Assembly: GCA_008632985.1 (NCBI GenBank)
Contig: QPGO01000102.1
Coordinates: forward strand, 62,001 to 126,000
DNA: 64,000 nt
Direction: 5' to 3'
From: Psammoneis japonica
Taxonomy: Eukaryota
Below are positions 4,139-63,218 of this stretch, piece after piece (within the stretch, counting starts at the first letter, position 1; each line of letters begins with the position of its first letter). The notes under the pieces were generated by a model, which did no database searches, was not told the DNA's origin, and worked only from the letters and a program-made list of their open reading frames with translations. The translations under genes were made by a program, and so were the position numbers.

Positions 4139-4209
<71 letters not shown>

Positions 4210-31381: not shown

Positions 31382-34300
31382 CTACCAAACCTCTTGCTGA
31401 GCACGACCGTGGATAAACATATCCTCCATAACAGCAGTCGCGGCTTCTATTTCAGATGGATCTTCGCTCGCGTCGGAAAAGCTCTTGACAAGGGCGTCCT
31501 GGAGTGGTTTGGGCAGGTTCCGGTTGCCGCAAACATAAAGCATGCCGTTGGTACGTTCACGCAACAGACGACGGGCATCATCGGTGATGGCGACCAAATC
31601 CTGCACGTATATCTTCTTCTCGGGGTTGTCCCGACTAAATGCAGTATGCAAACTGAACCAGCTGCCATACTTTTCCTGCAGAGCTTCGAGCTCAGACCTG
31701 TAGAGGAATTCTGTTGCCTCGAAACGGTTGCCAAAAAAGAGAGAGAATGGGGTAACGTCCTCGCCTTGCTCAGCAGCATGGACACGGTCACGAAGGAACG
31801 CCAAATGCGGTGCAAGGCCGCTACCGATACCGGCGCACACAACGGGCTGATCCACAGTTGGTGGCTCCATACTTCCTGGCTTAATCCGCACCCATAGACG
31901 ATCACCAGTCTCTAACTGACGGAGCATGTCACACGTCAGACCATAACGCATTCCGTCATCGCACCACCAAGTATCGATCAATATACAGAGCTCAATGTAG
32001 TCCTTGCTAGCGTTTGGCGAACTGGCAATAGAGTAGGCACGAGGTTTGATCAATGGAATCATCGCAAGAAGGGCTGGTAGAGGCGGGCGCGCTGTCTCGA
32101 ATCGGAGCAATGCATCGGCAACCGTAATGCCATTAGCCTTTGCTTCTTTCTTCAAAAAACTCGGATCCAACATTGTCTTCCGCTGTTCTGGATCGGTCTC
32201 GAAGGTTGCAAGTTGCTGCATAAAGTGAGTGCTTGGCTTCCCGAACAGATCGAGAACACTGGTAAAGAGGCAGCCCAGAGAAACGTCTCCATCAATTCCC
32301 CAGGCGTGAATGTTGACGACGGTACGTTCGTCATAGTCCGCAGAGTACTCCGCCAAAAAGTCCGAAACGCGTTGCGGGTCGTTTCGAGGGAAGATTTCGA
32401 GCGCGTCGCCGACTTCGTAGTCAAGGTCTTTGGCGATCTTGATGTTACGGAAGTCTCTTCCGTAGTCCTCGGGGCACATCTTTTCGTTGCTAAGAATCTC
32501 AGATGACAAGGCCCTTACACCCTCGGACGTAAAGTATTGGTTCTCGATCTGCTGGTCCTCGACTGCAAGCAGAATTGCACGAGGCGAAAACGCAACCTTG
32601 ATCGGCGTAATGTGCGGGACCTCTTTGGGGGGAGGGATGTCAAGCGCGGGCCAGACGCCGTCAAGCCACTCGTGGAGTCCTTGTTCCTTGCCTTCTTCCG
32701 CCGAATCGTCGCCAGTTCCCATGGGGAGTAAGCTTTTTGCACCCAACTCCAACATCTTGTCCTCCACATCTTTGGCTGCCTTGCAAAAGAAGTAATAACT
32801 CGAATCGCCGAGTCCCATCATCATGAAGGATGTGCCTTCCGAAAAAGGCTCTGCTCGCGCACAAAGTTCAGCGTAGAAGCGCTTGCCATTCTGAGGCATA
32901 GCGCCTTGTCCACAGGTCGCAACGAAAAACACTGTGGTCTTTCCATCAATGTCATCGACATCTATATCGTCCATTGCATCAGCACAAGGCGCCAATGGAC
33001 AGGCGTCCGCAAAGTCTCGAGCGAGGTGTGCAGCATTACCCGTTTCCGATGCAAATAACACCTTCACGGACGCGTCCTCCTCGGCACCAAATGACTTGTA
33101 CCCGGCCGCGAGCTGCTTCAAGTGTTCCATGCGGTGGTGGACGTCGGTATTCAACTTGCCAAAGAGCTCGTCAGCAATGGCCGGATTCCTCCTCTTGAGA
33201 TTAATGAAACGGCCTTCGCGTTTCAGGAATGTAGTGATCTCCTTGCGAAGTTTCTTACTGTCCAGAATGAACGGATTCTTTCCCTCCTTGACGAGTGCGG
33301 GGTTGTAGCGGTACAATGGCCAGTACCCACTGTCGACGGCGAATCTGCATTCGTCTAGCATATCGGTCATTCCACGAGGCCGGATCTGCTGTTGGATACA
33401 CGGAGCGTACGCAATGACAATGGATGGGCCATTGAATTGATCGGCTTCGACGATGGCTTGCAGAGTCTGCGCCTGCTGAGAGAGCGCCACAGATGCAACA
33501 TAGACGTGCTCGTACGTCATGAAGATTTCTCCAAGGTTCTTCTTGGCCTGTTCTTTGCCGCCCATGGCGAACCTAGCAGTCGCACCGGATGGTGTTGCCT
33601 TGGACTGCTGTCCGCCCGTGTTGCTATACATTTCTGTATCGACAATGAGAATGTTCACGTCGTTTGCGGCAAATGCACCCACGTGGTCGAGACCACCGTA
33701 GTCAATATCATAGGCCCAGCCGTCACCTCCGACGATCCAATGAGAAAGCTTTGGGAACGCATCTCGCTCGGCCCAAATGTCTGCAAGAAGTGCTTCCTCT
33801 GTCGACGAGTGTCCAGACTGTCCCTCCGGGAGAAGTGCAGTAAAGAGCGGCTTCATCTTGTCAAACAGCAAAGTGCATTTGTCACTCTTCTCGTCACGAG
33901 CATCAAGCCAATCATGGAAAAGAGACAAGAGAGAGTTCTCGTCGTCGCTCCGCGTAGATGCCTCACGGAGTTCTGCGTGGTGCACATAGTCTTGAACATG
34001 CTTTATGAGACGCTCCCGTCGATGCGCGCTACCAGAGAACATGCCGAATCCGAATTCCGCGTTATCCTCGAACAAAGAGTTTGCCCAGGCTGGACCGCGT
34101 CCCGTCGATTTCGAAACCGTGTAGGGATTGGAAGGAAACGATCCACCCCAAATGGTGCTGCAACCGGTGGCGTTGGCAATAACCATGCGTTCACCAAACA
34201 ACTGGGTCAACAATTTGAAATAAGGCGTCTCACCGCAACCCGAACAGGCTCCAGAAAACTCCATAAGCGGCGTCTGAAACTGCGAGCCCTTGACAGTTGA

Positions 34301-36977
34301 CTTTTCTACCAAGTCCCCGCGTTCCGGAAGATTCATGGCATACTCCCAATTCTTCTCTCCGTGTGGAAGGGCTTCCTTAATCGTACCCATTTTGAGAGCC
34401 TTTGGATTTTCTGGGCAGGCTTCCACGCAAGCGTTGCAACCGGTGCAATCTAGGACTGACACACGCAATGCGTACCGCTTTCCCACCAATTCAGGTCCGG
34501 CTGCCTTGAGCGTAGCAAAGTCTTGTGGGTATGGAGCACCCGTCGCTTCGTCTTTGGTAACGACAAACGGACGAATGGCAGCATGCGGACAACAAAAACG
34601 CACTGATTACACTGCGTGCACGAGTTGGGTTCCCACTTTGGAATTGCACCGTTGGGATTGGGATTCCTCTTTTCATATGCGGTTGTTCCTGGGATCATCA
34701 CGCCACCAATCACGTCATTTTCCAAAAAGGTGGAAACCGGAATGTCATCACCCTCGAGCCTCGACACGGGCTTGACAACTTCGTTCATGAACTTCTTGGT
34801 CTTGACGTCTTCAATCAAGTCAATGTGGCGACTCAGCTGGGAGCGGTCTTCGCTTGATAATGATCGCCACTTGGCGGGAACAGTGATTTGAATCATGGCT
34901 TCGGGATCCGCCACGACGGCATCGAGAATCTCGATATTCTTGCGCACCACATCATCTCCCTTGGAAGAGTACGTCTTGACAATGGCGTTCTTGAGGAGCG
35001 CCACGGCATCTTCCAACGGTAGGACCTTTGATAGTGTAAAGAAGGCGCACATGCAAATCACGTTAATACGGTTGGGCAGTCCATGCGCTGCCGCCACACC
35101 CGCTGCGTCCATAACGTAGAACTGAGCTCGACGAAGAGCCAGTACTCGAAGAATCTTGGGAGAAACCAAGGCCTGCAAGGCCTCCATTCGTTTCTCGGGG
35201 TCCTTGATGGAAGCCACACTCGTATTGAGGAAGAAGGTGCCTCCTCGCTTCAAGAACCGAACCACATCAAATCTACCGCCCTGTACATAGGACTCGTTGT
35301 GGCAAGCTACATATCCAGCCTGACCGTCTTCGACACGGAACGGGGCTTCGACTGGATGGTTTGGTGAGAAGCGCAAGTGGGACACAGTCCAACCACTGCT
35401 CTTCTTGGCGTCGTATTCAAAGTAAGCTTGAACCGACATGTCTTCGTGGTAGCCACCAATAATCTTGATGGCTTCCTTGTTTGCTCCAACACTGCCGTCA
35501 CTACCGAATCCCCAAAAGACGCATTGACTGACGCTATCGTCAAGCGAGGAAATGGGTCTACCCATGGGTAGCGAGAGGTTGGTCACGTCGTCATCAATAC
35601 CAACCGTAAAGGGCCTCTGAATGTCGGCCACATCTCGGCGGAGCATATTGTGAATGACAGCCTCCACCATTCTCGGTGTAAAATCCTTGCTACCGAGGCC
35701 ATAGCGACCACCGGCAACAATCACGTCGGTGCGGCCCTTGCGCATGAGCGATGTGGCCACATCGAGATAGAGCGGCTCGCCTTGAGAACCACCTTCACGA
35801 GTCCTGTCCAAGACAGCCACGCGAGTGACAGACTCGGGTAGTGCGTCACAAAAGTACTCAAAGCTCCAGGGACGAAAGAGCCTGACCCCGATGAGGCAGA
35901 CTTGCTCTCGTTTGAGGTGCTGCAAGGTGTTATCCACCACCTTGACAGACGAACCCATTGTAATTATGGCTACTGTTGGCTGGGTGGTTCCATAGTAGCG
36001 ATATTCAAAGGCATGGTACTCTCTGCCACATACGCGGCGAAAGTCGTCCATGGCCTCCTTGAAAATGCCGTCCACCTCGTCATAGTATTTGTTGCTCGAC
36101 TCTACCATTTGCATAAAGACGTCTGGTGCCTGAGCTGTACCACGTTGGCTATGCAGAGAGAGAATGGGAGAGAAGCACGATTGCGTGTCAGAATAATTAT
36201 TGATAAAACACGACAGAAAACGCGAACCGCGACTTACTGTGGATGCATCGGCGACAAGGCGCGACTCTTGTGTTCTTCGATTTTATCCCACGGCATGAGT
36301 TCTCGAAGCTGTTCGTCACTAACAATAGATATCTTGTTGATTTCGTGTGATGTTCTGAATCCATCCATAAAGTGAAGGAACGGGACTCGTGACTTGAGAG
36401 ACGCCACCTGCGAGATGACGGCCATGTCGTGAGCTTCCTGAACGCTGAAGGACGAAACCATGGCGAGTCCACAGCCTCTGACCAGCATAGTGTCGCTGTG
36501 ATCGCCATAGATAGACAGAGCTTGTCCAGCGAGAGCTCTTGATGCCACGTGAATGACTGTAGGAAGCAGTTCTCCGGCAATCTTGTATAAATTGGGAATG
36601 TAAAGCAACAGTCCTTGGGAGGCGGTAAAGGTCGTTGCGAGACACCCGCTTACGAGCGCTCCGTGAAGAGCTCCGGCGGCTCCTCCTTCACTCTGCATCT
36701 CACACACCTTGAGGTCTTGGCCCCACAGATTCTTCTTGTGCTGCGCGGCCCATTCGTCAACCATTTCTCCCATGTTGGACGACGGAGTAATGGGGAAAAT
36801 GTAGGCGACATCGTTCATTCTGTATGCGGCATATGCGACCGCTGTGTTTCCGTCAACACACTTTTTCACTTGAGGATCCGGTACTAACATTGTCTTGTCT
36901 TTTGGTGCAGGCTTTGTGCCCCCTTTGGAGTCTTTACGGAGGTTCTCCTGCGATCCCGTTTGAGGGTTTGCTTTCAT
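31382..36977 (-). CDS. PNO: Pyruvate:NADP+ oxidoreductase (PFOR fused to flavodoxin and FAD/NADPH cytochrome-P450-reductase-like domains)
   Basis: DGNTAVAY, IFPITPSS, EMQSEGGAAGALHG, FTASQGLLL, GGRYGLGSKDF, GFGSDGSVGANK, two [4Fe-4S] motifs (CTQCNQC..CP, CTGCNACVEACP), FSGACSGCGE, GGDGWAYDIDYGG, then FASETGNA, ATCGQG, RAYSIASS, GSGLAP, YVQD, ending QEVW. Intron 36237-36149; one base missing at ~34594-34598. Confidence 0.95.
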
Positions 36978-37782
36978 CGTGATGGGTCTTCCGATGTCTT
37001 GTTTTGTTTTTTTTTGTTGTGAGAAAAGAACGACAGGCGATGCGAGAAGAGGGCGGTGTTCTCGTTCGGCGAAAGATACGATTCGTTGTATACTGTTCAC
37101 GTAGAATTCTACGCAGGAATGAAACTCCGCGAATCTGCATCGGCATGTTCGAGGGGTTCTCATTTTGCCTTTCTCTCATCGAAGATGACGTTTGTAGCGA
37201 ATTACAACCGTTAAAGACGTTACAGATCAGTACAAACATACTGCTAAAATAATCGCAAAAGACTTGCAGTTGAAGCTCACGTGACATCATCAACTATTAG
37301 GAAGAATGCCTTCGAAGCCACCGCTTCTGCTCTTCACATTTTCACTCTTGCTTCTGTTTGTCCGATGAGAACAGCTTCGGATGTGTGGCTCTGAGGAGGA
37401 ATGGTCAGTCACTGCCGGTAGGCTAGCTAGTAGTAGTCAGTCGGGCAATCGACACTTCAATCCCAACTTGTCACACGCTCTCTCGAGGCCAACGACCGAT
37501 AAGGATAGGTCCCACTTCTGCATTCTCAGTTTAACAAAAGAACCCACCATTAATTCACACAGCTTGATTAATTTCCAATACCACAGACAACTCGTAGTCA
37601 CAAAGGAAATCTTTCGCTCATTCGAACTGCCTCGGACCTAAGCGACAAGCCAACATCTTTTCCGTCGGCGTATCAACAGCCAAATTGCCTCTGCGACAGC
37701 AATAGCTTCATACTCCACTTCATCTCTGTCTCTCCGGCAGAAACACGTTTATCAAACTTAAAGACTCCTTCGAGGATCAGTA

Positions 37783-40155
37783 TCAGTACGCAAGTCGAGC
37801 TTCTCCCGTCTCAATCACTCGCCTACTCTCAATCCATTCCATAATGTCAAAATCAACCGTACCTCCAACATCTCGAGGAAGCATGTCCTCCAGGATTCCA
37901 TACTGGGCAAGCTCCTCCAAGATCCTGTCATCTGGAACTTCATGCATTATTGTTCGAAGCCGCAGGTCCTTCCCTTTTACGGCCCTTGACGAGGACACGA
38001 GAGCTCCCAATACCTCTTGAGCAAAGCACAAACCGTGGTCAGCATTCACCTTCAAAGGCCAGCAATCCTTGGACAGTCTTTGAAACGAAGCAATCAATTC
38101 GCCGTCCAAGTGCCAGAGAGCCGCATTTTTAAAGTAGCCAATGCGGACGGCACCCTTGTGTTGTGTATCCCGTTGGATTGCAACTTCCATTACATACCAA
38201 ATTGCACGAATCTGCAAAAAAGAAGATAATCCACGACATGCTCAGTAAGGCTATCGACCAGCACACGTAGATAAGGCATACAGTAGCTCCGAAACGTACC
38301 ATGCTTTCCCTGGTGTAACCTTCCCCGGTATGGTTAGCAACATTGAACCAGAGTAATTGTCGTCCAGACGCGTCTGTCTGAGGAAGCAAACACGCGTGGC
38401 CGGTACCTAATGCAGCAAAGTCATCACGCAATGCCCCGTCAAGTGTCATTGGTAAATGATACTTGTCGTCCCCAAACGTTTGTCTTCGGCACTCCCAGTA
38501 CTTCACGAAACGCTCTGCCGCGCTCTATGTGAGATGTATTGAAACAATTCGTCAAAGGCGCTTTAGCAGGGATAGTAAATGCGAATCAGCAAGCGACAAC
38601 AGCTTTCAACCATACTCACTTTGGGATTACAGTCGGCAAATCGAAGAAATCGTTCCAATCTCGTGTCGCTAAATTCTTCAGGAGAGCACTTTGATTGTAC
38701 GTTTAGAAGTGCAATCTTATCATCCTTAGGAATCAAGTCAATCTCACGCTTCATCAAATTTACAGTATTCAAGATGTCGTCCTTCGCGTGCTTGTCCCTG
38801 TGAGAGTCAACGGTGCAGTAATTTCCAAACATGTCAGTAAGAACTTCCACTTTCTCGTCTTCTGTCAGCATCACCCGTTCTGTTTGTTCTTCAACGGATA
38901 TTACCAGCGCCCTGTCGACGCTTTCTGCGTAGATATCCAGTATTTCCTTTTGTTCTTTGGAAAACTGGACAGTTTGTGCAGGCATAGATTCTGATTTCGA
39001 TTCGTTGTCGACTGGTCGAGCTCTCTTCGATGATGATGCAACTGTTGCATTTTCTTCTGGCACTGAGTCCATTGGGGTGACTTCAGAATGGGAGACGCCC
39101 GGCTCCTGAGGACCACGTCCAAACATGCGGCAAATGAGAAACGAAACGTCAGCATCGAATGGACTGGAGAGTCAACGCGCACACACACCAAGTAGCTTAC
39201 CGAGTCAGTACCTCCAGGAGAGGGAGTCGAACGTCTGCTTTTATCTCGAAGAGCGTGAAGGCATTTCTTGAGTGCCTTTTCTTCGCTAGCGTCTTCATAG
39301 TATGGAACGCCCGTTGTGCTTTCAGATTTCATGAGGCGAAATTTTCCGCCACTATCAAGAACTTGATTGAGAACCTGCCATGCAATTCTGTTCTTTTCTT
39401 CATTTGTCTTGGCACTGAAATATTCTGGCTTTCTTGCGTCTATGAGGCGACGAAACCTCCGATTTCCTTTGTAATCATTCACCCTCGGTCCTCGACCCAA
39501 CAACACATCATTCGGGTTCAAGGTATTTGCATCTTCACGACTCGCCTTGAAAGGATCGATATCCTTGGGCGTAACAGGACCAAGGACCGCTGATTTCCGA
39601 ATACGTTCCTCCACGGCCTATCGTAATGAAATAAAACGAAAGATTGAGCTATCTTTGTGGTACACACATCAAGAGAGATCAAATTTCATCATGATAGCAA
39701 CGTACTTCGTCAAAGTATTGAGGAGGAAGAGCATTAACACGCTTCTTCTCTCTTAGAGCATGACGACATTTGTTGAGCGCTGCTTGGATGCCCACATCCT
39801 CGTAAACCACTTTACTACCACTGCCCACGGCGTTATTCACCTGCAGAAAACGCCCAACGCCTCCCAGAACCTGGTTAAGCACTTGTCTCGCAACATCCAG
39901 CTTTTCTTCGTTCGACTCGGCACGTAGGTACTCGTCCTTTCTCTGTTCGACGAGCCAGCGAAAGCGACGATTTCCGCTATAGTCATTCGCCCCCGATCCT
40001 CGGCCCAGGAGAACATCGTTTGGATTTAATTCGGTTATCAAGTCTGGCGAACTCTGCGCACTGCAATCGGAAGGCCATTCCATGCCGTCGCTGGAATCGT
40101 TGGAAATGCATCCGTCTTTCTTTGTATCGGACTCGTGATTATTGTTACACATCAT
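37783..40155 (-). CDS. Protein with two DUF6824-type domains and a CRAL-TRIO/Sec14-like lipid-binding domain; 5 exons
   Basis: Exons 40155-39706, 39617-39201, 39105-38620, 38524-38300, 38211-37783 (all phase 0, GT-AG). Two PNDVLLGRG..N.Y.GNRRFR..G.F motifs; ERFLRFADCNPKSAAERFVKYWECRRQTFG and YGILEDMLPRDVGG. Confidence 0.85.
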
Positions 40156-40609
40156 GCTTCTCGGCCAATGCCATCAAACAAATACGCAATAAACTGGCGG
40201 CGGTAATTCAATACTGCATACGGCAGCAACAGCAGACGGGTTGGTGGCAGTCTAGTCGCTCTTGATCGCATCGTTGACACAGCGAAGTGCGAAAGGAGCC
40301 GCCGCCGCAGTGCCGGCAGCACACTCAAACTTCAAGTTGGATCGAGAAATTTAGCCTTCTGTAACTTACAGTGACGTACTACAGTATGTATTCTTATATT
40401 CCGTTTGCTCGCTCTGACATCCCCATTACCGGGTACGCGCCGGTGGCATTGCCGTACATCCTGAATCGCGCAACTCCTCGTCATCCTCTAAAGACTGGAG
40501 GAACTAACGCACAGCAGCCTTTTTGCTCCACTGATGGCTCTAGAGAGAGGCTAAAGTGGCAGCTAGCTGGCAGAAGCAGTTACAGTTATCAACCATGTCA
40601 GCTAACGTG

Positions 40610-43380
40610 ACAGGCCACAGAGAGAAAAAAACCGCACGCCATGACTTTCGACAGGCCGCTGTCAAAGACGAGAGAAAGCAAAGTGAGCCCAATGATGAGA
40701 ATGCTGAGAAACTCAAGATTGTGGATGGCTTTTTTCAAGAGGAGCAGCAGAAGCCAAAGCATGTTGATCCACTCCATTCAAACTGATGCAGCAATGGAAA
40801 AGCCCTGCATGCCAACTTTTTTCGCGCTTTTCTCATTTCGATTTCTTGCCCACACGTTCAATCCATTCGACAATGCCAAAGCACACAGATCCTGTCTCCT
40901 GCAGAAGCATGACCTCCAGAATGAGCAGCTGGCCAGCTCCACCATTGGCTGACAATCTGGGATGTTGTGAACAATGGAACGGAGTCACAAGTTCTTGCCT
41001 TTTGCAGCCCTTGACCGTGGCATGAAACCTGCGAGCGACGCTTGAGAACAATGCAGACACCATGGTCAGCATTCACCTTGAGAAGCCAGCAATCCTTGGA
41101 CAGCTCTAACAGAACAGAAATCAATTCACTGTCCATGTGCCAGAGAGTCACATTTTTGCAGTGCACAAAACAAAGAGCACTGTGGTGGCCAATGTCTCGT
41201 TGAATTGCCACCTCCACAACACGCCAGTCCAAACAGCCTGCACACTGCAAAAAACAAAAATCATTTAAAGCAACTGTGAAGTTGTGGTCATGAGCATCCC
41301 AAGTGAGGTGCTTTGTTGGACACTCACCAAACTTTTTTTGTGTGACCCCATCCCATGTGATTGGCAAAGTCAAACCACAGCATCAAGGCCGGGCAGCAAA
41401 CAAGCACAGCCAGTCCACAATGCAGTTGAATTGTCCCAAAGGGTGCCATCAAGCATCATTGGCAAATGGCACTTGTCCTTGCCAAAACTTTGTGTCTGCA
41501 GCACTCCCAACACTTTACAAAATGATTCGCTGCGAGCTGTTGATGACGAAGCTCGTGGTTGGAGGAAGCTTTGATTCATTGGCCGAGACAAGGCAAAGCA
41601 ATGACATGCCACACACCATGACACTCTCACCTGGGGACTGCAGTTGGCAAAACTGAGGAACTTTTCCAATCTGGAATTGCTGACATCTTCACTGCAACAT
41701 TTTGATTGAACATCTGCTGGCGCACGTTTCTCATCTTGAGGAACCGAGTCAATTGCGCACCGCATCAAATTCAAAGCATTGGGCAGGTCATCTGCAGCCA
41801 GTCAAACATGCTTGGCTTTGTGAGAATCAATGGTGCAGCAGTTTCCAAACATGTCTGTCAGAACTTTGGCTTTCTTGCATTCTGTCAGCATCACCCGTTC
41901 TGCTTGTTCTTCAATGAAAGAAATGAGTGGATGGCTGGGGGGGGGGTCAGAGAAAAAATCCAACACTTCTTGCTGCTCTCTGGTGAGCTGTTCTCTGGCG
42001 ACATTTTCTGTTTGTGGCTTTTCAGGCAACATTGCATTTTCAGTTTCGGATCCATCACTGGACATTTGATCTCTCTTCAAGGATGATGCTGACATTCTCT
42101 TCTCTTCTTCCATTGGCGAAACTGGTTGAACTTGCATGTGGAAGTTGTGACAGGGGTGCCATCTGCAGATCATGAGCAGTGGATGTGTTGATGACTCCAG
42201 GAGGCAGCCAAAAGGCTGTTTTTCTCTGAAAGAGCACGGAGACACTTTTTGACAGCTTTGTTTTTGCTGACCTCTTCAAAGCAAGCTGTGCCTGCTGCTC
42301 CTTCAGAACTCATCTGGCAAAATCATCCACAACATTCCATGACTTGTTGCAATGAATGTCATCTTGGGGACACTGATGTGATCGCTGATCACTGTGATGT
42401 CATTGACGTCCAATGACGCACCCGCGTTGGTCTTTCCATCCAGTGCATCCAACCTCCCACCATCCCAAGCTGTGCATTTTTCTTCAATTGTTTTGGCGCC
42501 AAAGCACTCATCCTTGCTCTTTTCCACAATCCAGCAAAAACATTGATTTTCCCTGCAATCGTTCGCCCCCGACCCTCGACCCAAAAGAATGTCATTTGGG
42601 TTCAATGCACTCCTGTCTCCCCATGTGGCACTGTTTGGAGCAATGATCTCTGCTGGGCTTGCAGTGGCCAGCAGCAGCCAATTCAGAGAGAGCGTCATCA
42701 CCTGAGACTGAAAAACAGCCAAAAGGAGTTTTTCAGGTTCAGATGCAATGAAAGAGAGCACAATGCTGAAGGATTCAAGCGTCCCACTCAAGCCATCAGG
42801 GGAAAGGCCGCAACTCTTTTTTTCTCTCGCAGAGCACGACGACAGTTCTCAAAGGCTTTGGCAATGTCCAATTTCTTGCAAGCACCAACAGCCACACTCA
42901 CTCTCAGAAAACCCCCATTTCCCAAACCTGATTGAGACTTGTCTCGCGATCTCTGCTTCTCTTCATTTGCTTGGGTGCCACAACTCTCTTCCTTTCTCTG
43001 TCACAATCCAACAAAAGCAAAGATTTCCTTGATCCTCGGCCCCCAGGAGAACATCATTTGGGTTCAACTCAGTTGCCAGCCTCAAATTGTCTGGTGGGCT
43101 CTCGGGAGATAAAGGCAGTGCCATGCAGTTGGCTCAATTGTTGGAAATGTTTGCTTCATCTTTCGTTTTCTTGTCAAAACAGCACTGTTGAAAAGCGTTC
43201 TTTTCAGTTTGGGTGTTGAGCTCGCACAGTGCGGTTTTTCATGTGACAGTGTGCCACACAGTGAACGCGGTGTCAGTCGTCAGTCGCAAGCTGGTCTGTT
43301 GCCGAACACCATCGCCCATCGTCCATCGCCTTCTCGCTTCTTTTCTCCGATCATGACCACGGCGCCGTCTCCGCGCAATT
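40610..43380 (-). pseudogene. TpA/CpG-hypermutated tandem paralog of the DUF6824/CRAL-TRIO gene (island 3)
   Basis: Colinear homology to 38000-40130 (LNPNDILLGRGSGANDC, VLTDMFGNCCTIDSH, FGKDKCHLPMMLDG, SKDCWLLKVNADHG) with stops and frameshifts. About four residual TA in 2.8 kb. Confidence 0.9.
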
Positions 43381-43457
43381 GCCCTCATAGAAAATCCTTA
43401 CTGTAGATTTTTGATGGGTCGGACACTTCTTGACAGGACTACTACAGTACAGTAATA

Positions 43458-44412
43458 AATTGGTCGGTCATTTCTAGAGTCATGGTCATTGGTCGTCAAA
43501 ATTGAAAATGTCAAAAGATCCGCGGATCTGGCAGATCTCGGATAAGCTCGTCCGGTTTCTTGCCGCATGCCGATGCAAAACAAACTGAAAGACACGGAAA
43601 GATTCACAATGGTGATGTGTCCGNCCAAGAGAAGAGGATCTTCTCCTCCAAAGAGTGCCTCTTGCAATGAGCACATTTTCCGCCTGAGCAGCGCCGAGGT
43701 GTCGATGATGCTGAGACATTTGCAATGTGATGCTGAAGATCAAAAAAGCAAAGCTCGATGAGTGAGATTGTTGGAGGGAGGGGCGGCTCATGCACCGCCG
43801 AGCCACCGGCAGCTGAGGCAGCTGAAGGAAGAGCCCCAGGATCGGGTCGAGCGAATGGTGGGTCAACCAGAGGGATCCGATGCAACGCCACACGACCCTT
43901 CCTCAAATGTTCTAGGAAAGGCAGAGGGGGTGGAACGTCACATGATAAGATCCAATGTCGCTGTTCAGCACGATCGATTGAGGTACGACGAGATGGCGTT
44001 TTGTTGACTTTGTGCCGAAAAAAAGCCGACGATTGTACTAACCCTCATGTCTGGTTTTGTTGAATCCAATTTTTGAATGTTTCCGTTGGGGTGTCTTTTG
44101 GTCATTTACGTTAAATTTACTTATGAATATTATAACGGCCCGTAGATACACGAATGACCAAAGTGTAGATACACATGGCGAGCCACCCACAAAGAAAGCA
44201 AGTGGTCAATGCTCCCCGCAGGCCTGGTTTTATCTTGTTTTTTGGTTGGACACTTGCGTTAATTGGTCGGTCATTTCTAGAGTCATGGTCATTGATCGTC
44301 AGAATTGAAAATGTCAAAAGATCCGCGATCCAGATCTCAGATGCTCTCGTGCACCATGCCGATGCAAAACAAACTGAAAGACACGGAAAGATTCACAATG
44401 GTGATGTGTCCG
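43458..44412 (+). repeat. Diverged ~155-165 bp direct repeat (43458-43623 and 44261-44412) with an N at 43624; probable haplotype or scaffold join
   Basis: Both copies read AATTGGTCGGTCATTTCTAGAGTCATGG...GATTCACAATGGTGATGTGTCCG. The first stops exactly at the N; the second continues into the downstream gene. Confidence 0.85.
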
Positions 44413-45952
44413 TTACTACCAGCCCTTGCACTGAAAGCCTCCTTGTGAAGGTATTCCTTATCATGCATATGATTCTCCCTTCAATGGGAGCAGGCGACAC
44501 CATAATGTTCAACATACCTGGGTCTCAAGCAGGGGCATTCTCGAAGGAATTTACTCTTGCCCAGTGGATTCGTGCGAGAATCCCGTTGTCATCGTTGATG
44601 ACCAAGTCTATGCTGATATCCAATGGAATGCATTGGCGGATGAGGCGCCTCCAGTGTCCTCATTTTTGTTTGGTTCCCAAACCGGATCGGGCGACATGTT
44701 GGACACTTTGCTCTTGGATATCATCAATTACACGGACCGGTCAACGCAAGAGTATTTTCACGTCAAGTATGTGTTTGATCCAGACAACCCGTCCTCGAAC
44801 GAGAATGCCACGTACAATGAACTCTACACGTTTCCCTTTTCGGTTCTTCCTACATCAAACGCGTCGTTGCCTCCCACAATTTCAATGTTGTGGGCGGCTT
44901 TTGTAGCTCCAACAATTGGCGGAAACGCAGACAATTCCATTTGGACTCTGGGAATTAACTTAATTGACACGTCCAATACCAGTTGTGTTCGTCCCATGAG
45001 CAATTCCGAATATGTGAACTTTCCCAATTGCACGACGAATGTCGCGACACTGTACAACAATTGCTCTCTGTCCGACGGTGCCGAGAGCGGCTTTCCAGCT
45101 GGGTGCAGAGACCCCTCAACCAATACAAGCGTCTATCCCGCCCCCACTGGACTCGTCAATGTCGCTATTTCCGATGATCTTGACCTTTACTTTGCCACCG
45201 TCTTTAGTAGTCTCTACAGGGGTCCTTTAGACACGGTCATGTCGGCTGAGCTGTGGGTGGCCAAGACGGGTGACATGCCGGACGAAGTTCAACGCTTCTC
45301 GGCTGATGAGTGGATCATGGACGAACCCTTTTGCGCTAACAGTAATGCTGGAGGAATCGAGTTCCGCTATGATGAAGATGGTATTCCCATTCACATGTGT
45401 CGATCTGTGTCAAGTGCAGGCATTACTTGTCAAGAGATTTCTGTCCAAGTTGACGGCACGGTCGAAATAGTTCAAGCACCCCATGTCGTGTTGAATTCGT
45501 CTCAGGTTCTAGAGTATTGCAATGGAACCTTTGCGTGTGAAAAGGTTGTTTCGGGTATTCGACCAGTTTGGAAAGAAGATGATCCTAGTGGCAGTTCTCT
45601 CCCAGAAACTGTGTATTTCGGATGCAATCCTGACGATCAGTTTTCTGGAGGGTTTTTCAAGGTGTCTGTTGCAACGGGTCAAGTCTCAACTGTGGTGGAC
45701 TTTTACAATCCAGGCTCCATTATATTTGGCCTTTCTATGCCTTCCACAGTCCAGCCCACCACGACTCTGCCGCCTAGTACCTTGGCTCCGAATACGGGTT
45801 CTCCGACCGGAACACCAACACCCAATACGGAATCTCCCACAGTACCGCAAATGACATCAGAACCCACGCCATCGGGATCAGACAGAGATTTGCTACGTAA
45901 TGTGTGGGCGCTACTTGGATGTGCTTTGGTCATGGCATGCTCATTGTGCTAA
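44398..45952 (+). CDS. Secreted or cell-surface protein with Pro/Thr stalk and hydrophobic C-terminus (possible GPI anchor); two frameshifts near the 5' end
   Basis: Hydrophobic N-terminus from ATG 44398, 462-aa ORF 44564-45952 rich in N-x-S/T sequons and Cys, TLAPNTGSPTGTPTPNTESPT stalk, VWALLGCALVMACSLC tail. Confidence 0.7.
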
Positions 45953-46459
45953 GGCTCCTACACTGTGGACAGTTCTTTGACACCCTTTTTGATCCCCTCC
46001 TTTCCTCCTATATATACCTTCCTCTATAATCTTTTCTGTAGTTTTAGTTCTGCATTGGTTGGGTACGGCCGGTAGTCTTACTCGAGCTGCTAAATCTTGG
46101 TCCTATTTGTTCTTTGTACGGTAGGCGAGAAATGAGAAGCAGCGAGGAATACGGTGCAGAATGCCAACACAGCTAGTTCTACTGGGTGTGCTCGGTCCAT
46201 AAACACAGAACTTATCAATCGACAATGTGCGAGGTTTTGTTTGCCCATTAATTTTAAAGTTGGGTGGTCCGTTGGTTCTGTGAGTCGGAACGAATTGAAA
46301 CTGGATGTGTGACGCGATTCAAGTTTCCCGCTCTGTGCGGAGCCAACTGCTGTCATTTTCTCGACAACAATTGCCTCGTTGATGCTGTTGACAGTCCTTT
46401 CTTTGCAACCATGTCTCTGTGGACATGTGTCTACAGGCAAGTGATGCAGCTGGAGTCTA

Positions 46460-49400
46460 CATCACTCTCACTGCAGGCTGAGACTTTGCTGTGCTTGATC
46501 TTTGCAGTGGTTTGTTTGGGAGACGTGTTGACATCGTTGAACTTGTGGGAATGACAAGCTGCCGTTTGTGACATTGCCTGTTCTCATGACAACATTTGTG
46601 TGCTGGGCATGTGAAGGTGAGACAAGGGAGAGGGAGAATTTGACATTTGTGCTGATTTGTTTGAGATTTCTTGTTGCTTTTTCATGCAAGATGCAAGTGC
46701 TTCAGCAAGGTCGGATTCCAGCCATTGTTTTGGTTTTTTGGACACATGCATGTTGAAATGACAGGTGTGATGGATCCAAAGGTCAAATTCCCTGAGAATG
46801 ATGATGTTGTTTTAATCATCAATGTTCTCAGGGAGCAGTGGAAAGACCAAAATGTAATCAGATGGGAAAGGCTGGGCCCAAAGTGCTTTGAATTAAAAAG
46901 CAGTGGCACTTTTCTGTGCAGAATGCTTCAAGGAGTTGCAGGCATGCTTGGACCATTGGCAAGTTTGCTTGAACATTTGCAAAGCAAGCCAAGAGAGCAA
47001 TGCATTTGTTGGAATTGTCAGGTGGGACTTGGATGTCATGCTTCACAGCAAGCTTGGCCAAGCTGTGTTCTTTCTTTGTTTTGAGTTGTTGAAAAAACCA
47101 CCACCTCCTGCTGCATCAACAATGTTGGAAATTTTGCCAGGGTCAGAGGAGCAGATGCAAGATTTGACATGGCTGCACCAACAACCCAGCTTGCCTTTTT
47201 TGTGAGATGCAGAGCTTGTTGGCCAAGTGGTTGGGTCCAGTGGCTCCAGCCAAGCTGAGCTTGATGTCAGCAGAAAGGAGGCTGCAGCAAAATGCCTTCT
47301 GTGTTCAGCCACTCCTGAGCTGCTGTGACACAGGAGTGCACCAAGGGATGCACCATGAGCTCATGGATGTGCAGACCTGTTTCTTGTTTTTGGGGAATGT
47401 TTGGGAGCTGTGTCACAGTTCGCGCTGCTTTCGAGCTGGCTCAGCAGCAGAAAAAATTGGGTCAACTGGCTGCAGACATGCAAATTTGTGGTGCTGTTTT
47501 GGGAGAGAAGCCAGTGGAGACAAAACAAAGCAGATGAAGGGTGAGGGATTGGCTGCTCTTGAGAGGAGATTTCATGCACTGCCAGGACTCTGTGACAGTG
47601 CTCTTGCCAACAGGGAGCTGCAGGACACCTTTTTTGTCAACACAACAGTGTCTCCTGTCAATGCTGCAATGACAACAACAGCAGCAGAGCTGCAAGAGTT
47701 TGCTGCAAAAGCAAGTGCACCATCACATGCAATCAACTGCTTTTTGTTTGTTGTCAAACAAATGTCCCAAGATGTGAGATCACTTGTGAGCACAAAAATC
47801 ACCACAAAACAACAGAGTGCCGTCACGGTGCTGTGCTCACAATGGAGAATGCCTCAATTCTGCAGGCAAGCAGCTGAGGTGAGCCAATGCCAAATCAGCC
47901 ACAACTGACATCTTGGGGAGACAACCAGAGATCAGAAGATGAAAGGATGGCAGGCACAAAAAAACACATTGAGAGCTGCAAAGTCACCAGGCACATTGTT
48001 GACAAGTCATCTCCAAGGTTGACAAAAGAGCAACAACAAGGGTCTCATTTCAAAAGCAGGTTGTGGCAACCTTTCACAAGAGTGAAAACCCAAAACAAGT
48101 GGTTTGTCTGACTTCCCAAAACCATGGTCAGTTTGGTCATGTGTGTGTGCCCTGCAAGCTGCTGCTCCACAATGGAAGTGGCAAGCACTCAAGCAAAAGA
48201 AACGGCATTCTGTCTCATGTCTCAGAAGGAGCACAAGGAGAGTTTGTGTTTCAATTTTTTTAAGTTCTCCAAGCCTGTGTCATTCACAAACTGCAGCACC
48301 ACCTGGGTTGCTGGCTGGGGAGTGCCCATGTTTGGGAGGAAAAATTTCCCCACTCCAGCTGCTCGGCCACTTTCACATCACAACATTTCCACTCAGGACA
48401 AAGGGCTGGGTTCCAAGGCAATTGTCCAGCTCCATGAGTGTGCAGCAGGGCATGTGGCACGCGCAGCAACAAACAGAAACAAACAGTCAAACCTGGCTCA
48501 CATTGCACAGCAACAACAACATGAAGAACGAAGAGGGAGCCCTCTCTCAGTTTTTTCATTCAACAAGCCAGTGAGGGGGAAAACAGCACCTGGCACTGAC
48601 TTTTGTCAATGGTCGCATTGGAAGAAGCAGCCAATCCTTCTGAGTCACAGCCTCCAATGCCACAGCAAAAAGAGACAGACCAAAGCAGTCAGCTTCATGT
48701 CTTTTGTGGGGAGCTGGAAATGTTCATGATCTGTCCTTTTTTCCAGCAATGCCTGGACACAGCCACACGGAGAAAATGATGTTCCCTGCACTCACAATGT
48801 GAGAAGAGCTGCAGTGCATTGTGTTGTGGAGGAGGCAATGACAACAAGGGCTGGGGCTGGTTTGCACAAAAGGGACTTAAAGGAAGAGCAAGCATGTCAT
48901 CTAAAAAGAAAGAGAGCTCTTGATTTTGAAACTTTGCCTTTGAAGCCATCCTCAAAGATGCTTGTTCAAATGAAGTCAACGCTCAATGATGTTGCAAAAA
49001 AAGAGACCAGTTGGAAAACTGAGGAAGAAGTGCTGCTGGGTGGGTCAGCATGCCCCCCTCTTGGGAGGTTGCACTGCCACTGGGTGGCGGCATGCCAACA
49101 GGTTCAATCATGCCAGGTGGAAGCATGAGGGTGGGATTTGGCCCGCTGTGGGAGCAGCCATGGTGTGTTGGCATGCCAGAGCCATTTGAGGCACTCTCTC
49201 TGTGCAAACTGGTGCATGGCTTGATGCTGCAATGTCCAACAGAAACAATGGGGCACTTGTTTTGTTTTCTCAATCAGAGCACTGCTGCTTTTTGTGGCCT
49301 TGCAACCACATTGGTGGCAAGGTGGGGCAATGGCAATCTTTCGCACTGTAGAGTCATTTGTGCAGAAATGTGTGGAACAGCACCATCCAAGACAATTGTT

Positions 49401-50380
49401 GAAAAGTCTGTCTGTCTGTTCTTAGCGAATTTCAACTTTGCGAAAAATGGACTTGACTGTTTTCTGATCAGGCGCATTTTTCTTCAACACATTTGCAACA
49501 AAAACGCACCTGACCCAATGACAGTCAAGTCTGTTCTTTTTGCACAAATTGTGTGAACACAACAGTTTCAGCACAAAAACATGTAGATTCCACAGGCATC
49601 CACAATTGTTTTGTGCTTTTTACATCACGGGTCATTTTCGAAAGATTCCTGTTGGGTGTGCAGAGCAATCTCTCTGTGACAGCATTGCCAGAGATTGTGA
49701 CATCCAAAAACAGAGTGGCGTGCTTCTTGGCTTCTTGTTTTCTCTCACAGTCAGAGCACAGCTGCTTTTTAAAAGCCCTCAAGGCTCAGTTCCTTCTGCT
49801 GAGGAGATGGCAGTCATGGTGACTGAGAACGTGCAACACGGCCCTGAACATGGAGAGCACCACCCAAAGAAAGAGAGTGTGAGAGTGCGAGAGTGATGTG
49901 CAAAATGACTGTGCCCACAAGCAGTGCAGTGCAACATCTCCATGACACACCAGCTGGAGAATGTGATCCCCGCTGGGAATGATGAGATCACCATGAGAAA
50001 TCCCAACATGATCTCAAAGCAGTTGAGTCGAACACACACCATTGAGCAAGAAAATGTGGAGAAGAGGAGGGGGGATGACTCGATTGGATGCCGACACAAA
50101 ACATTGGCATCAAACCAAAGTTTCGAACTTTTGTGAATGAGGGCCTCAAACCTGGCAACGACTGACATGTGAGCTTCTTCCTTTTTCTCTCCCTTTTTCC
50201 TCCTCCTTTTTTCATGCATTCGGAGCCACCCGCACCACAGGCTCTGCCCGCACCGCTGTGGATCATCGAATCTTGGGGAATCTGGAATCCGTCGCCCTTT
50301 CTTTTACTGCAAAACATTGCTGAACATGATTTTTGAAGAAGCAACCGCAATTGTCGCAATGATGCGTTGAAGTTGCCGTC
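46460..50380. other. TpA-depleted hypermutated island 4 (degenerate element, origin unidentified)
   Basis: About a dozen TA in ~3.9 kb by manual read, mostly in TTA/TAA; CpG very scarce in the core. Confidence 0.85.
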
Positions 50381-50409: not shown

Positions 50410-52104
50410 ATGAGAGTGAGCTTTGTGTGGTTCAGCTTGTCTTTGTTGTGGCTTCGAATTGGATCCGGAAAATCGTTCAGCCCCTTTACCAACAGGATGC
50501 GTGCAACAAGAGCGGCGGCAATTGCTTCCTCTTGTCGCCTTACTCGTAGTAGCAGCAAACGAGCGAAGTCTACGCTCGCTGCGATAGATTTTCGTGACGA
50601 GGACGAGTCATTTACCTTGCGAGGAGATGGCGTGGAGGATGAAACTATCTCATCTTTCTCAGGGTCAGTCGGCCAAAAAAGAAGAAAACGAAACCCAAAA
50701 CCTGCTGTTGTGACGCCTCCTCCACAACCAAGAGCAAAGAGTAGGCAAGCTGTGTCGACAAGAGGGGGCCAGTGACACGACGTTTGAAAACAATTATCTC
50801 CACTGAATCTTCTATTAAACCTTCACCTGACGAACCTCTCGATTCTGAGGACCAAGTTGTCGAAATGCCTCGTGACGAAGAGTTTCTGGACTTGAACGTG
50901 TCTCCGGCGGAGCTCCGTCCTTCCACTACTCTAACAACTGGTCAGTGTTTTCACTGGAGAGCAACGGTGGATCAATCCGCCGATCAAAATTCAGCTTCTG
51001 CATGGGGCTCCTGTAACGCAACAGAATGGGTCGGTGTGCTACCAATACCTGCAGCGGATAATTCCAATACCTTACACTCCGTGGTGGCGATTCGCGAGAC
51101 TCCAACCACCACTCTGTATCGTGCCTTGTCCTTGCCAGCAATGTAACACAGGAGCGTGTCGGCTGTGTCTTGAAGATTACTTTCAGGTGGATTCAAGTCC
51201 TTCTTGAAACAGCTTTATGAGGATTGGAGTGCGGCATGTCCAAGGTTGGCACGAATAGCGCATTGCATTCCAGGGGTTCGTGTGGTACAACAAGATCCAT
51301 GGGAATGCTTGGTGAGCTTTCTCTGTTCCAGTAACAACAACATTCCAAGAATCACCAAGATGCTAAATTCTATTCGACAAACATACGGGGCACCCTTGGC
51401 AACCGTGTCACTGCCCGCTCGCAACGAAGAAGACCGTGGTGAACTTGTCACCTTTTTCTCGTTTCCCACCTTGCAGATTCTGAGAATGCGCGCAACAGAC
51501 GATGACTTGAGAACCAAGTGTGGAATGGGATATCGTGCAAAGTATCTCATAAAGACAATCAGTATTCTGCAGGAACTTGGAGGAGAGGAATTTCTAAAGA
51601 AGCTGCGTTCCAACAGTGATCCATGTGCAGTGCAACAAGAGCTCTGCCAGTTTCACGGCGTTGGTCCAAAGGTGGCAGACTGTGTGGCTCTTTTTTCGCT
51701 CAACCAAGTAGACGCGATTCCGGTCGACGTTCATGTATGGAACGTGGCACGGAGAGATTATGACAAGGACGATAGTTTGAAAATGGCCAAGAGTCTTACG
51801 CCCACGATTTACAACCAAGTCGGGGGATTGTTCCGAGCAAAATTCCCAGAGAAGGCAGGATGGGCGCACTCTCTGTTGTTTGTAGCTGAGTTGCCTAGTT
51901 TTAGGCCGCTGCTACCTGATGATTTGGTCGCGGAAATGGATCAAGTAAGTTCTCGATCCCCCTTTCTTCATTTGTCAATCTTTCTGCTGCAAATTCTCAT
52001 GCAGCCATTCTACTATTACACTCCCAAAGTTTCGGGAATCCGAAAAGGAAAAGAAGAAGAAAAAGGATGCTGACAAGAAAGGGAAAGGGAAGAAGAAGGC
52101 ATGA
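50410..52104 (+). CDS. OGG1: 8-oxoguanine DNA glycosylase/AP lyase; frameshifts near 50770 and 51135-51200
   Basis: LRPSTTLTTGQCFHW, GVRVVQQDPWECLVSFLCSSNNNIPRI, GMGYRAKY, HhH-GPD motif GVGPKVADCVALFSL..AIPVDVHVW, AGWAHSLLF. Intron 51945-52029 gives a Lys-rich tail ending at TGA 52104. Confidence 0.92.
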
Positions 52105-57616: not shown

Positions 57617-58650
57617 TCGCGAGATTTCCAGTGCGTCCGTGCGGCGCACGCCATTTCTTCCATCATCTCCATGTTGTGTGTCCCCAAATCACATGATGAA
57701 GATGCTGCTGAGAGGAGAAGAGCCAAGGCATCTCCAGCCAGCTGCTGACCAAAGAATCTTGTTTAGAATTTGCACTGAAAGAGCCTCTGTCAAGAATCAG
57801 CTTGTTTGGAGCTTTTGGCGAGTGCTGGACAGGCTTGAGGGTCAGCTCAATTGGAAAAATTGAGCTGGCAATGCCCCCAAAAGTCCGCTGACAGGTGGAC
57901 TTTCTTCAGCCAGTGGCTGGTTGGAGACATCCCCTGTGTGCTGTGTTGTGTGTTTGGTGTTTGTTGCTATGCTTTTTTCTTGTTTTCTTTTGTGCATCTG
58001 TCTGTCGTCTGTCAACCTTCGAAGGATGGGCCCACCATGTGCTGCCACCGTGCATGCAACCACATCTGTCCACGTCTGTGCGGTGAATTTCCATCACGTG
58101 GCACACCTGCACAATCTCACAAGCAAGAGGGCAAGAGTGTCTTTGCCAACACCACATGCACACACCACTCACCACTGAGTTCACAACTCTTCATGGGGTG
58201 CTGCGTGCCACCCGCCGTGCCCATGACAAACCCCACAAATCACACAGAATGCAGGCAGTGAGTGAATCATCAGAGTTGGCATTAAAAAATTGACTTCAAG
58301 TCATGCTTGAATGTGTGCTCATTTGTCCTTGTCAGCATCCACCATGCTGGCACTCAAATCTTCTGCTTGCTTTTGAGCAAGACAGCCTCATTGTTGCTCT
58401 CCTTGGCAGCCTCCACGGCAGCACAATTTCAATGTCACTCCTGCAAGCTGGGTGTTTGCAATCCAGGAATCAAATGCCCAATTCATCCAGAATTGGAGCA
58501 GCCTGAGCCACAATGCAAAAGACATCAAAGATCTGTTGGTGTGCAGAATTGCACAGGATTACATGGTGCCGTGTGTTGTGGAATGAGCATGTGTTGTGGA
58601 GAAAGTGCGGAAATCTTTTGCAGCACTCAAAGCATAAAAACAGAGTTGAT
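57617..58650. other. TpA-depleted hypermutated island 5
   Basis: About five TA in ~1 kb, four in TTA/TAA context; TG/CA-rich; sits between NAXE and the ankyrin-TIR gene. Confidence 0.75.
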
Positions 58651-61759: not shown

Positions 61760-63218
61760 ATGGCGGAGGACAACATCGTTGCGTCTGGCAAAGCAGAGGA
61801 TGTAGCAGCTCCGGAAGTCATGGCAGAACTCACGGGCGCCGAAGGCGTGGCGGCAGCTGCCATGACTGCACTTGGCGCCGAGGGAAGTGCCGAGGGTGTG
61901 TCCGTCGAGTCCGAACGCGCAAGGATGTCGGAGAAGCTGGCGCAGTCCCAAACTGAAAAGAGTGAGAAAGCCGTGCCGCCGGAGCCAACCTTTCAAATTT
62001 GTGGTTGGAATGAAGCACAGCAGCTGGGTTGCACCGCCGAGCAGCTCCTTGGGGCCGGTTGCAAGATCGAGTTGGTGGGTGATCAGGCCACCTTTGTGAA
62101 ACCGGAGGTCCTGCCTTTTTGCAGCGGCAAAAGCGAGGAGGCAGCCAAGCCCGCGGCCAAAGTGGTTGCGAAAGCAACGGCGGAAGAGGAAGAAGAAGGA
62201 AAGCAATTTCCGGACCCCAACGATCCGTCATTCGACTTGTGGGACTGGGTGTTGCGGCACGAAAAATCCGATAAATTCCAGGAGTCCATGTGCCTGATGA
62301 AGGATGCGCCGAACAATCCCAACCTCTGGTTCCCCGCACTGGGAGAACTGGGGTGCATCAGGAGCGACCCTGAAGCCGTCGCGAATGCTCACAGCAAACA
62401 CTGCAAGTGGGTGTGGAGGTGCCGCACGGAAGTCGGCGAGAGGGGCATCCCAGACTCGACGCCGAAGAGCAACAAAGTGTTCAAGACCGCCATCGAGGCT
62501 TTCGAAGCGGGGTGGTTGCTCGCACTGGTCTGTCTCGTGAAGAGAGCAAGTGCAGAAGTGTGCACATTTGGATGAGGCGCCGCGTCACTTAACCTGCGTT
62601 GTTTTGCCTCGAAAAGTCCGTTCGCTCCGCAGGCCCCAAGGAGGTGGAGGTGGGCGAGCTGCGCGTGTCACAACGGAGGGGCGCAGGCATTGGTTTTTTT
62701 GCCTTGTGCCAGTTCCAGAAAGGCAGCACGGTTGGAATCTACGTGGGCCCCAGGGTGCCCGGTACGACGAGGAGCCACTCGTGGTGCGACCACGACAGCA
62801 AGTTTGGAGAAGACCACAGCGTGTGCTGCTCCACCATCCGTGACAGCGAGGGCCACTGTGTCACAGTGGAGCCAAAACGCTTGATTTTAGTGGTCCAGGG
62901 AACAAGAGTTCCCATCCACTCTACCTCAGAATGCACTGCGTGAACGATGCCACCGAGTCGTTCAAGGACAAGAAGAAGATCAAGGCAAGCCAACACACGG
63001 ACAACAACTGCAAGTTCTACAACGACGGGTGCTTGGCAGTCACGAAGCGAATCATGCCCGGGGAGGAATTTCTCTGCAGATGCAACTTGGACGAATCGGA
63101 GAAGAAGAAGAAGAAGAGGAAGGCGACGTCGGGTGCCATGAATCGGAAGAAGAAATCGTGTCTACTCCCCAAGTCGGGGGGGAGAAGCTCTACGTCTGGC
63201 AAAATGTCTGCCATGTAG
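61760..63218 (+). pseudogene. Degenerate SET-domain protein gene
   Basis: ELRVSQRRGAGIGFFALCQFQKGSTVGIYVG (SET-N), MHCVNDA...NNCKF...LAVTKRIMPGEEFLCRCN (SET-C; the GEEL.xxY Tyr is replaced by Cys). Stop or frame breaks near 62575 and 62900. Confidence 0.7.

Follow-up and report, generated by a model that had tools for sequence, protein, structure and literature searches.

TTAA is in excess among the leftover TpA steps of diatom DNA islands depleted of TpA and CpG

We analysed 64,000 nucleotides of Psammoneis japonica DNA (assembly GCA_008632985.1, contig QPGO01000102.1, positions 62,001 to 126,000 of the forward strand). This whole stretch is called the window, and all positions below refer to it. 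It contains five islands in which the dinucleotides TpA and CpG (TA and CG for short) are strongly depleted, and the subject of this work is the bases which flank the few TA left in them. The window is diatom nuclear DNA, as follows from its open reading frames (ORFs) and from the best matches of one of them. The products of the large ORFs outside the islands are a pyruvate:NADP oxidoreductase, in which POR domains are fused to flavodoxin/FAD/NAD domains, a protein with DUF6824 and leucine-rich repeats, one with ankyrin repeats, a YjeF_N protein and an OGG-like glycosylase. No entry of a large protein collection exceeds 73% identity to the oxidoreductase ORF, whose top named matches are from diatoms (an MMETSP entry beginning with Trice, Nitzschia, Thalassiosira, Stephanocyclus and Conticribra). 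Islands were called where (TA+CG)/(TA+CG+TG+CA) was below 0.15 in 300 bp. This yielded five islands of 0.8-3.7 kb, 10,627 bp in total, which carry no strand; the gene related to island 3 is listed with them.

2263-3668: island 1, with 1 TA, 24 CG and 316 TG+CA
28621-31058: island 2, with 4 TA, 29 CG and 558 TG+CA
37500-40233, minus strand: DUF6824 gene, expressed and spliced as seen in a transcript-like contig; the parent copy of island 3
40781-43135: island 3, with 4 TA, 48 CG and 488 TG+CA; derived from the gene at 37500-40233 as a tandem copy that has decayed
46442-50104: island 4, 3,663 bp, with 12 TA, 34 CG and 815 TG+CA; its TA-free zone continues to 50305
57769-58533: island 5, with 2 TA, 12 CG and 178 TG+CA

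Per kb, the islands hold 0-6 TA, 5-36 CG and 200-240 TG+CA, the last compared with about 125-160 elsewhere. Symmetrised odds ratios inside and outside were 0.03 vs 0.53 for TA, 0.23 vs 1.01 for CG, 1.77 vs 1.14 for CA/TG, 1.31 vs 1.03 for GC and 0.78 vs 0.91 for AT. G+C was not shifted (0.47-0.51), and runs of at least five A or T were 2-3 times commoner in the islands than in the remaining window. The loss of TA was more complete than that of CG. On both sides of islands 1, 3 and 4 the TA-free zone overshot the CG-poor zone by 100-300 bp (examples are the edges at 2078-2263, 43135-43388 and 50104-50305); therefore, the borders of TA loss and CG loss differ. A TA-free, CG-rich segment at 61803-62590 was considered as an early island and rejected, since it has the look of a normal GC-rich coding ORF, with its start at 61760.

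The islands showed no sign of coding. Codon periodicity was absent (z -1.6 to 0.4, compared with 23-39 in three coding regions), and none of 95 stop-to-stop ORFs of at least 70 aa reached the Pfam cut-off, three having weak sub-threshold matches. The 246-aa ORF at 47168-47905 had no relative among 399 candidates. No RNA run was listed for the island sequence, and contigs of the transcript-like set X2 cover the flanking genes and leave 40302-44037 and 46373-50108 uncovered, which is not evidence on expression. When the islands were compared with the window by blastn and tblastx, a parent copy was found for island 3 only.

A reading of positions 46460-50380 made from the sequence alone had claimed that the surviving TA sit mostly in TTA or TAA, with few exceptions. 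Every site it listed exists. Its numbers are those of the base preceding the TA, i.e. offset by one from the TA itself:

TTAA, position of the first letter: 2877, 29705, 41265, 46812, 46893, 48260, 48877, 49769, 58282, 63592
TTAG or CTAA: 29417, 41106, 48901, 49422, 57763
TTAC or GTAA: 41515, 46854, 49620
ATAA: 43109, 58634
Exceptions: GTAG at 49348 and 49583, CTAT at 57967

The listed TA at 57764, 58635 and 63593 lie beyond the island limits and were counted as outside. The GTAG and CTAT exceptions are present. Three further TA at island edges were not in the list (CTAG 28629, CTAT 31022 and CTAC 46458). The five islands together contain 23 TA, i.e. 9 TTAA, 8 flanked by the T or A on a single side and 6 with neither; three of these last six are within about 40 bp of an island edge. 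Between 46460 and 50380 there are 12 TA, comprising 5 TTAA, 5 TA flanked by the T or A on a single side and the 2 GTAG. The nine TTAA, which carry no strand, are junctions of a T run with an A run:

2877-2880: T3A3
29705-29708: T3A8
41265-41268: T3A3; the parent copy has no TA at the homologous place (intron, poorly aligned)
46812-46815: T4A2; in the 10-nt loop of an inverted repeat
46893-46896: T2A5
48260-48263: T7A2
48877-48880: T2A3
49769-49772: T5A4; ends a 33-nt direct repeat whose other copy, at 49261-49293, is followed by GTGG
58282-58285: T2A6

The inverted repeat at 46789-46834 has arms of 18 nt which are 83% complementary. No motif, repeat, spacing or strand was common to the surroundings of the nine sites.

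TTAA was in excess among the leftover TA. From the frequencies of NT and AN in the islands 2.4 TTAA are expected among 23 TA, and 9 were seen (p=3e-4). Compared with all TA outside, 9 of 23 stand against 73 of 1810 (0.9 expected; Fisher p=2e-7), and compared with non-ORF DNA outside against 31 of 651 (4.8%; Fisher p=2e-6). If each TA had arisen by a single substitution from the 4-mers of the islands, 1.3-1.5 TTAA are expected at transition weights of 1 to 10 (p 2e-6 to 8e-6). Hence, a background-corrected comparison of NTAN inside and outside the islands of this window leaves the TTAA excess standing under four nulls. It was also stable over nine island definitions (window size times threshold), in which TTAA made up 35-63% of island TA compared with 4% outside; in the strictest island cores 5 of 8, 5 of 9 or 6 of 11 TA were TTAA.

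The observation was confirmed in this way, with the proviso that the wider claim, that TTA or TAA as such marks the survivors, held in part. A TTA or TAA was carried by 17 of 23 island TA, compared with 54% expected from island composition (p=0.044) and with 38% in non-ORF DNA outside (p=5e-4). The surplus lies in TTAA and the T-run/A-run junctions, while TTAB and VTAA (V, not T; B, not A) were at expectation. When the base preceding the T was scored on each strand as a half-site (n=46), T was found 26, C 11, G 6 and A 3 times, with 14.9, 11.8, 10.1 and 9.2 expected (chi-square p=0.003). ATA/TAT was accordingly depleted (3 vs 9.2). The preference extended one base further: 18 of the 26 TTA half-sites were TTTA/TAAA, where 9.6 were expected (p=8e-4). 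The half-sites behaved independently, since P(T)=26/46 predicts 7.3 TTAA and 9 were seen. The 147 leftover CG had no context bias (chi-square p=0.88 vs island composition). This indicated that the bias is specific to TA and not a general property of island composition.

Could these figures be an accident of a small sample in sequence rich in A and T runs? There are only 23 sites, TTA or TAA is of borderline significance when tested per site against island composition, and sites protected on one side are not enriched. On the other hand, the TTAA excess has p <=3e-4 under every null, survives all nine island definitions and is fed by all five islands, each of which holds 1 to 5 TTAA. Because of these p values and this spread, we consider chance or composition very improbable.

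The direction of change was examined in island 3, which repeats the DNA immediately upstream in tandem and collinearly. Positions 40822-41914 align to 37795-38894 over 1,121 columns with 62% identity, and additional pieces of homology extend to 43166, i.e. the island at 40781-43135 nearly coincides with the homology at 40822-43166. A transcript-like contig joins the parent gene across 38212-38299, 38525-38619, 39105-39199 and 39617-39704, each 88-95 nt with GT..AG ends on the minus strand. The island 3 alignment passes through two of these introns, 38212-38299 (poorly aligned) and 38525-38619. By this alignment, island 3 is a dead tandem copy of the neighbouring DUF6824 gene. In the parent copy (37795-40125) TA and CG are at normal levels, introns included. 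The loss is restricted to the islands and is not neutral drift of the genome, because the four parent introns keep 23 TA and 19 CG in 366 nt.

Dinucleotides were compared in the two best of 8 alignments, and those containing gaps were dropped. None of 48 parental TA faced a TA in the island; 14 faced CA, 14 TG and 20 something else. The 69 parental CG faced CA (25), TG (13), CG (9) or something else (22). Parental TG and CA were kept in 33 of 59 and 63 of 108 cases, respectively. These counts place the origin of island 3 in ordinary sequence, changed by transitions at TA and CG which ended as CA or TG. The copies also differ by about 200 transversions and many gaps. A mass balance over all five islands agreed: xCA occurs 110.7 times per kb, and the sum of outside CA, half of outside TA and 0.385 of outside CG predicts 111.9. 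The TG and CA outcomes were randomly ordered along the five islands (runs z -1.7 to 1.65); therefore, these were single-site events on either strand, and a strand-coordinated deamination was rejected. Within 40822-41914, CG became CA on the plus strand 25 times and TG 13 times, which amounts to more C-to-T on the former coding strand of the dead gene. For TA in the same segment the two outcomes were balanced (14 and 14).

Base-calling or assembly errors at modified bases could in principle have written TA and CG as TG or CA. In a public run the islands are covered by DNA contigs at a depth similar to that of the flanks, and one contig spans 40734-41789 without a difference in 1,056 bases. These contigs were built from exact 31-mers. 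The run may be the sample of the assembly itself, and it is the sole run with this stretch; therefore, a slip of the consensus is ruled out, yet the reads are no independent confirmation. Errors would not yield a clean TG or CA at each site either, nor do they explain the transversions and gaps between island and parent. On the strength of the exact-word contigs, the transversions and the clean site-by-site outcomes, an artefact is hardly credible.

A second, diverged contig over 41760-43295, which could be the other haplotype or a paralog, has 107 other letters and 49 gaps compared with the window. Adjacent TG/CA swaps were seen in it at 41831-2, 41867-8, 41901-2 and 41964-5 when 40 of 314 differences were inspected, in a poorly aligned stretch. 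This is the pattern expected if two copies had resolved one old TA or CG independently. The divergence of X1 contigs from the window was 0 to 7% in islands and 0.2 to 1.2% in flanks. A faster change in islands is not claimed, because the ranges overlap and the contig with 7% may be a paralog.

Two of the exceptional sites seem to have a history of their own. Island 4 contains a probable small inverted-repeat element:

49352-49581, no strand: about 230 bp, resembling a miniature inverted-repeat transposable element, with ends matching 17/20 as inverted repeats

Direct TGTAG repeats flank it at 49347-49351 and 49582-49586, and it carries 4 CG and one TA, at 49423. The read-depth bin 49175-49641 is at about 3,400, compared with about 60 nearby. 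These features suggest a small element of high copy number which duplicated its target. Both GTAG exceptions (TA at 49349 and 49584) are the two copies of the flanking repeat; thus, the pair counts as one older TA.

Such events raise the question whether the bias lies in the creation of TA and not in its removal. TA appearing after a purge would then arise next to T and A runs by run extension, by small deletions between a T run and an A run or at junctions of insertions. The GTAG pair flanks the inserted element and the TA at 49423 lies inside it, leftover TA do lie at T-run/A-run junctions, and long A or T runs are commoner in islands. At 41516 the parent has TTCACG and the island TTTACA, a longer T run, and none of the three alignable island TA is a TA in the parent. 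The substitutions themselves did not behave as run extension demands. Between parent and island, C>T outside CpG was seen at 7 of 37 sites after TT, 16 of 88 after VT and 46 of 292 elsewhere (p=0.64), and a change of purine to T in 7 of 82 cases after TT vs 86 of 1067, i.e. without excess. C>T specific for TC was not seen in this comparison either. A uniform input of substitutions yields just the 1.3-1.5 TTAA given above, and the nine sites share no surrounding motif or repeat. Taken together, a bias in creation is rather unlikely to be the explanation.

We then considered removal. The sequence-only reading had proposed that a 5' T or 3' A disfavours the change and that TTAA is protected on both strands; this was supported in part. 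In a steady-state model the number of sources per leftover site, which sets back-transition from CA or TG against removal, serves as a measure of the removal rate. Relative to back-transition, removal came out as 17.7 for TTAA, 116.5 for TA with T or A on one side and 210.5 for unprotected TA; the value for CG was 16. Per-strand rates taken from the two outer classes are 8.8 for TTA and 105 for VTA. Their addition predicts about 114.1 for the one-side class, compared with 116.5 observed. If the islands are at steady state, removal at TTA would be about 12 times slower than at VTA. Since the rates of the two strands add, a TA protected on one side stays vulnerable via the other strand, and TTAA alone is sheltered. 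Directly, in the comparison of parent and island 3, T>C at xTA occurred in 11/20 cases after A, 5/15 after C, 11/35 after G and 6/25 after T, which is the rank order of the model.

In our view the best single reading, with a probability of roughly one half, is that a preceding T or a following A slows removal and that TTAA is sheltered on both strands. Several points weigh against it. The parent copy is not the ancestor of island 3 and the comparison has no outgroup. In it, T and V at xTA did not differ significantly (6/25 vs 27/70, p=0.23), and of 20 parental one-side sites 13 had become CA or TG, with the predicted direction taken 9 times and the other 4 times (p=0.13). Likewise, one-side sites are not enriched among the leftovers: without TTAA, 8 one-side and 6 no-side sites are left, a ratio in line with expectation (p=0.60). 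Neither of the two parental TTAA was retained, e.g. TTTTTAAAG opposite TTTTTGCAG. As to the three alignable island TA, two face CA or TG in the parent (CA at 41516, TG at 41107), and at 41266 the alignment, within the intron, is unclear. Such TA may have come back by mutation instead of surviving, or the loss may have been on the side of the parent. The additive fit fails once the 3 sites at island edges and one of the two copies of the duplicated target are left out (predicted 325, observed 116.5), and the steady state is an assumption of the model. Judged from the aligned copies, the direct comparison would favour a protection of about 2-3-fold over one of 12-fold. All this is drawn from 23 leftover TA, one 64-kb window and a single pair of parent and copy. 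We know of no agent with such specificity, and among the records returned by a full-text literature search none described one.

Another way to retain TTAA is selection, if T-run/A-run junctions serve as signals, such as 3'-end signals of the ATTAAA or TTTAAA type, protein-binding sites or nucleosome-excluding sites. TTTAAA is present at 2878, 29706, 41266 and 49770 and ATTAAA at 46894 and 58283, and one TTAA is in a hairpin loop. However, the islands have no coding signal, the sites share no wider motif, spacing or strand, and the parental TTAA were not retained. A signal function of such hexamers in diatoms is suggested by analogy, which counts against this explanation as well. We regard it as improbable.

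Slower removal in these contexts would fit the following course of events. The islands would be silent, non-coding relics, and at least one of them is a dead tandem gene copy. A process confined to them would turn TpA into CpA or TpG via transitions, on a random strand and far above the ordinary transition rate, with a slower decay of CpG to TpG/CpA running alongside. The leftover TA would be a steady state between ordinary back-mutation of CA or TG to TA and this fast removal. Per strand, the rate would be set by the base 5' of the T, with A the fastest, C and G intermediate and T the slowest, longer T runs being slower yet. Slow on both strands, TTAA alone would accumulate, and sites slow on one strand would be cleared through the other. 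Of this account, how the dinucleotides changed, the confinement to the islands, the surplus of TTAA and the missing context effect at CG are observed, and we infer the steady state, the roughly 12-fold ratio of rates and an enzyme or lesion that responds to the neighbouring bases. More tentatively, an undescribed diatom mutator acting on silent DNA may attack both self-complementary pyrimidine-purine steps, with TpA changed about 100-fold faster than by ordinary transitions and CpG less rapidly. The half-site rule, in which a 5' A is the most sensitive context, a 5' T or a T run protects and TTAA is almost immune, would then be the recognition footprint of an enzyme or of a modified base, e.g. 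oxidised thymine or deaminated adenine. Such a mutator, which is possible but doubtful, would be a sequence-erasing counterpart of repeat-induced point mutation (RIP) with the opposite dinucleotide outcome.

Other features of the window are recorded here. The pyruvate:NADP oxidoreductase gene (31382-37163, minus strand) consists of three large ORFs, 36234-37163, 34450-36114 and 31382-34603, which are probably separated by introns or frame changes. The gene for the OGG-like HhH-GPD DNA glycosylase (51204-52073, plus strand) follows island 4 at a distance of about 1 kb on the downstream side, with as yet no reason to tie it to the islands. Non-island DNA at 4141-4209 is an uninterrupted run of 69 T. 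A second high-copy stretch, 44038-44504 (depth about 1,540 vs about 50, loose contig ends at 44199 and 44231), lies just past a single N at 43624; one contig skips 43623-44426.

Erosion directed at a dinucleotide in silent or duplicated DNA is known for CpA, in RIP, and for CpG. A full-text literature search, judged from titles and abstract openings, returned no account of TA- and CG-free islands in diatoms or any other stramenopile, nor of a process which erases TpA along with CpG. Among 18 metagenome loci around relatives of the oxidoreductase (110 kb, mostly that gene) no window had a ratio (TA+CG)/(TA+CG+TG+CA) below 0.22, which is too little flanking DNA to judge other diatoms. An island-restricted erasure of TA and CG appears to be undescribed; therefore, the context rule is worth testing genome-wide. 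The flanking bases are the sole handle on the agent that the sequence offers. They point to the trinucleotides to be followed in mutation-accumulation or population data and to substrates for candidate enzymes. If the rule holds genome-wide, a sequence-reading, enzyme-like process could be distinguished from plainly relaxed constraint, and erased genes and transposons in diatom genomes could be recognised and dated.

How do the islands compare with known systems? In RIP of the Neurospora type, which operates in ascomycete fungi, C changes to T mainly at CpA, TpA rises, CpA and TpG fall and both duplicates are mutated. The islands resemble it as blocks of kb size in duplicated or silent DNA, dense in transitions at one kind of dinucleotide, and in one island, island 3, the mutated block matches the duplicated segment. 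Unlike RIP, which makes TpA, the islands lose TpA (0.03) and gain CpA/TpG (1.77), the parent copy at 37795-40125 is untouched including its introns, and the host is a diatom. The islands thus depart from two defining features of RIP, the outcome being opposite and a single copy being affected.

Methylation-driven decay of CpG, including the CpG-directed hypermutation of basidiomycete repeats, turns CG into TG or CA and spares TA. The fate of 38 of 69 parental CG (25 CA, 13 TG) and the residual CG ratio of 0.23 are alike, whereas TA is lost more completely and for 100-300 bp past the CG-poor zone. As the whole cause this was rejected, because it explains the CG part only.

RNA viruses and cytoplasmic RNA are poor in the same two dinucleotides and rich in CpA/UpG; the suppression of CpG and UpA there is partial and is ascribed to selection on expressed RNA (PMC3829696). 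By contrast, the loss in the islands is near-total and lies in non-coding DNA from a tandem DNA duplication which keeps intron-homologous parts. Word avoidance by selection, of the restriction-site type, meets islands without a coding signal and a direction of change that is mutational; this bears on coding and not on non-coding selection. Target sites of the piggyBac type, which are TTAA, were rejected, as no repeats or common sequence surround the nine TTAA and the sole inserted element has TGTAG flanks.

ADAR-type hyperediting, A-to-G with a U or T as 5' neighbour, would turn TA into TG; it leaves clusters on one strand and needs an RNA copy. ADARs are not known outside animals. In the islands the order of TG and CA is random and the copy was made at the DNA level, through introns, and the 3'-neighbour preference of ADARs does not fit. 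Hyperediting of retro-copies therefore fails on strand clustering and on the DNA-level origin.

Finally, the T of TpA is a target of thymine-modifying dioxygenases of the JBP/TET kind. Base J is found in telomere repeats containing TTA, and 5-hydroxymethyluracil at TpA in dinoflagellates. In the window no such gene was seen, and a mutagenic outcome is conjectural; the records returned by the literature search on this point, all of them reviews on dinoflagellates, mention no such modification for diatoms. Both T and 5-methylcytosine belong to the 5-methylpyrimidines, and the two pyrimidine-purine steps that are self-complementary are TA and CG. By this analogy, an oxidising or deaminating agent would be a reasonable guess.

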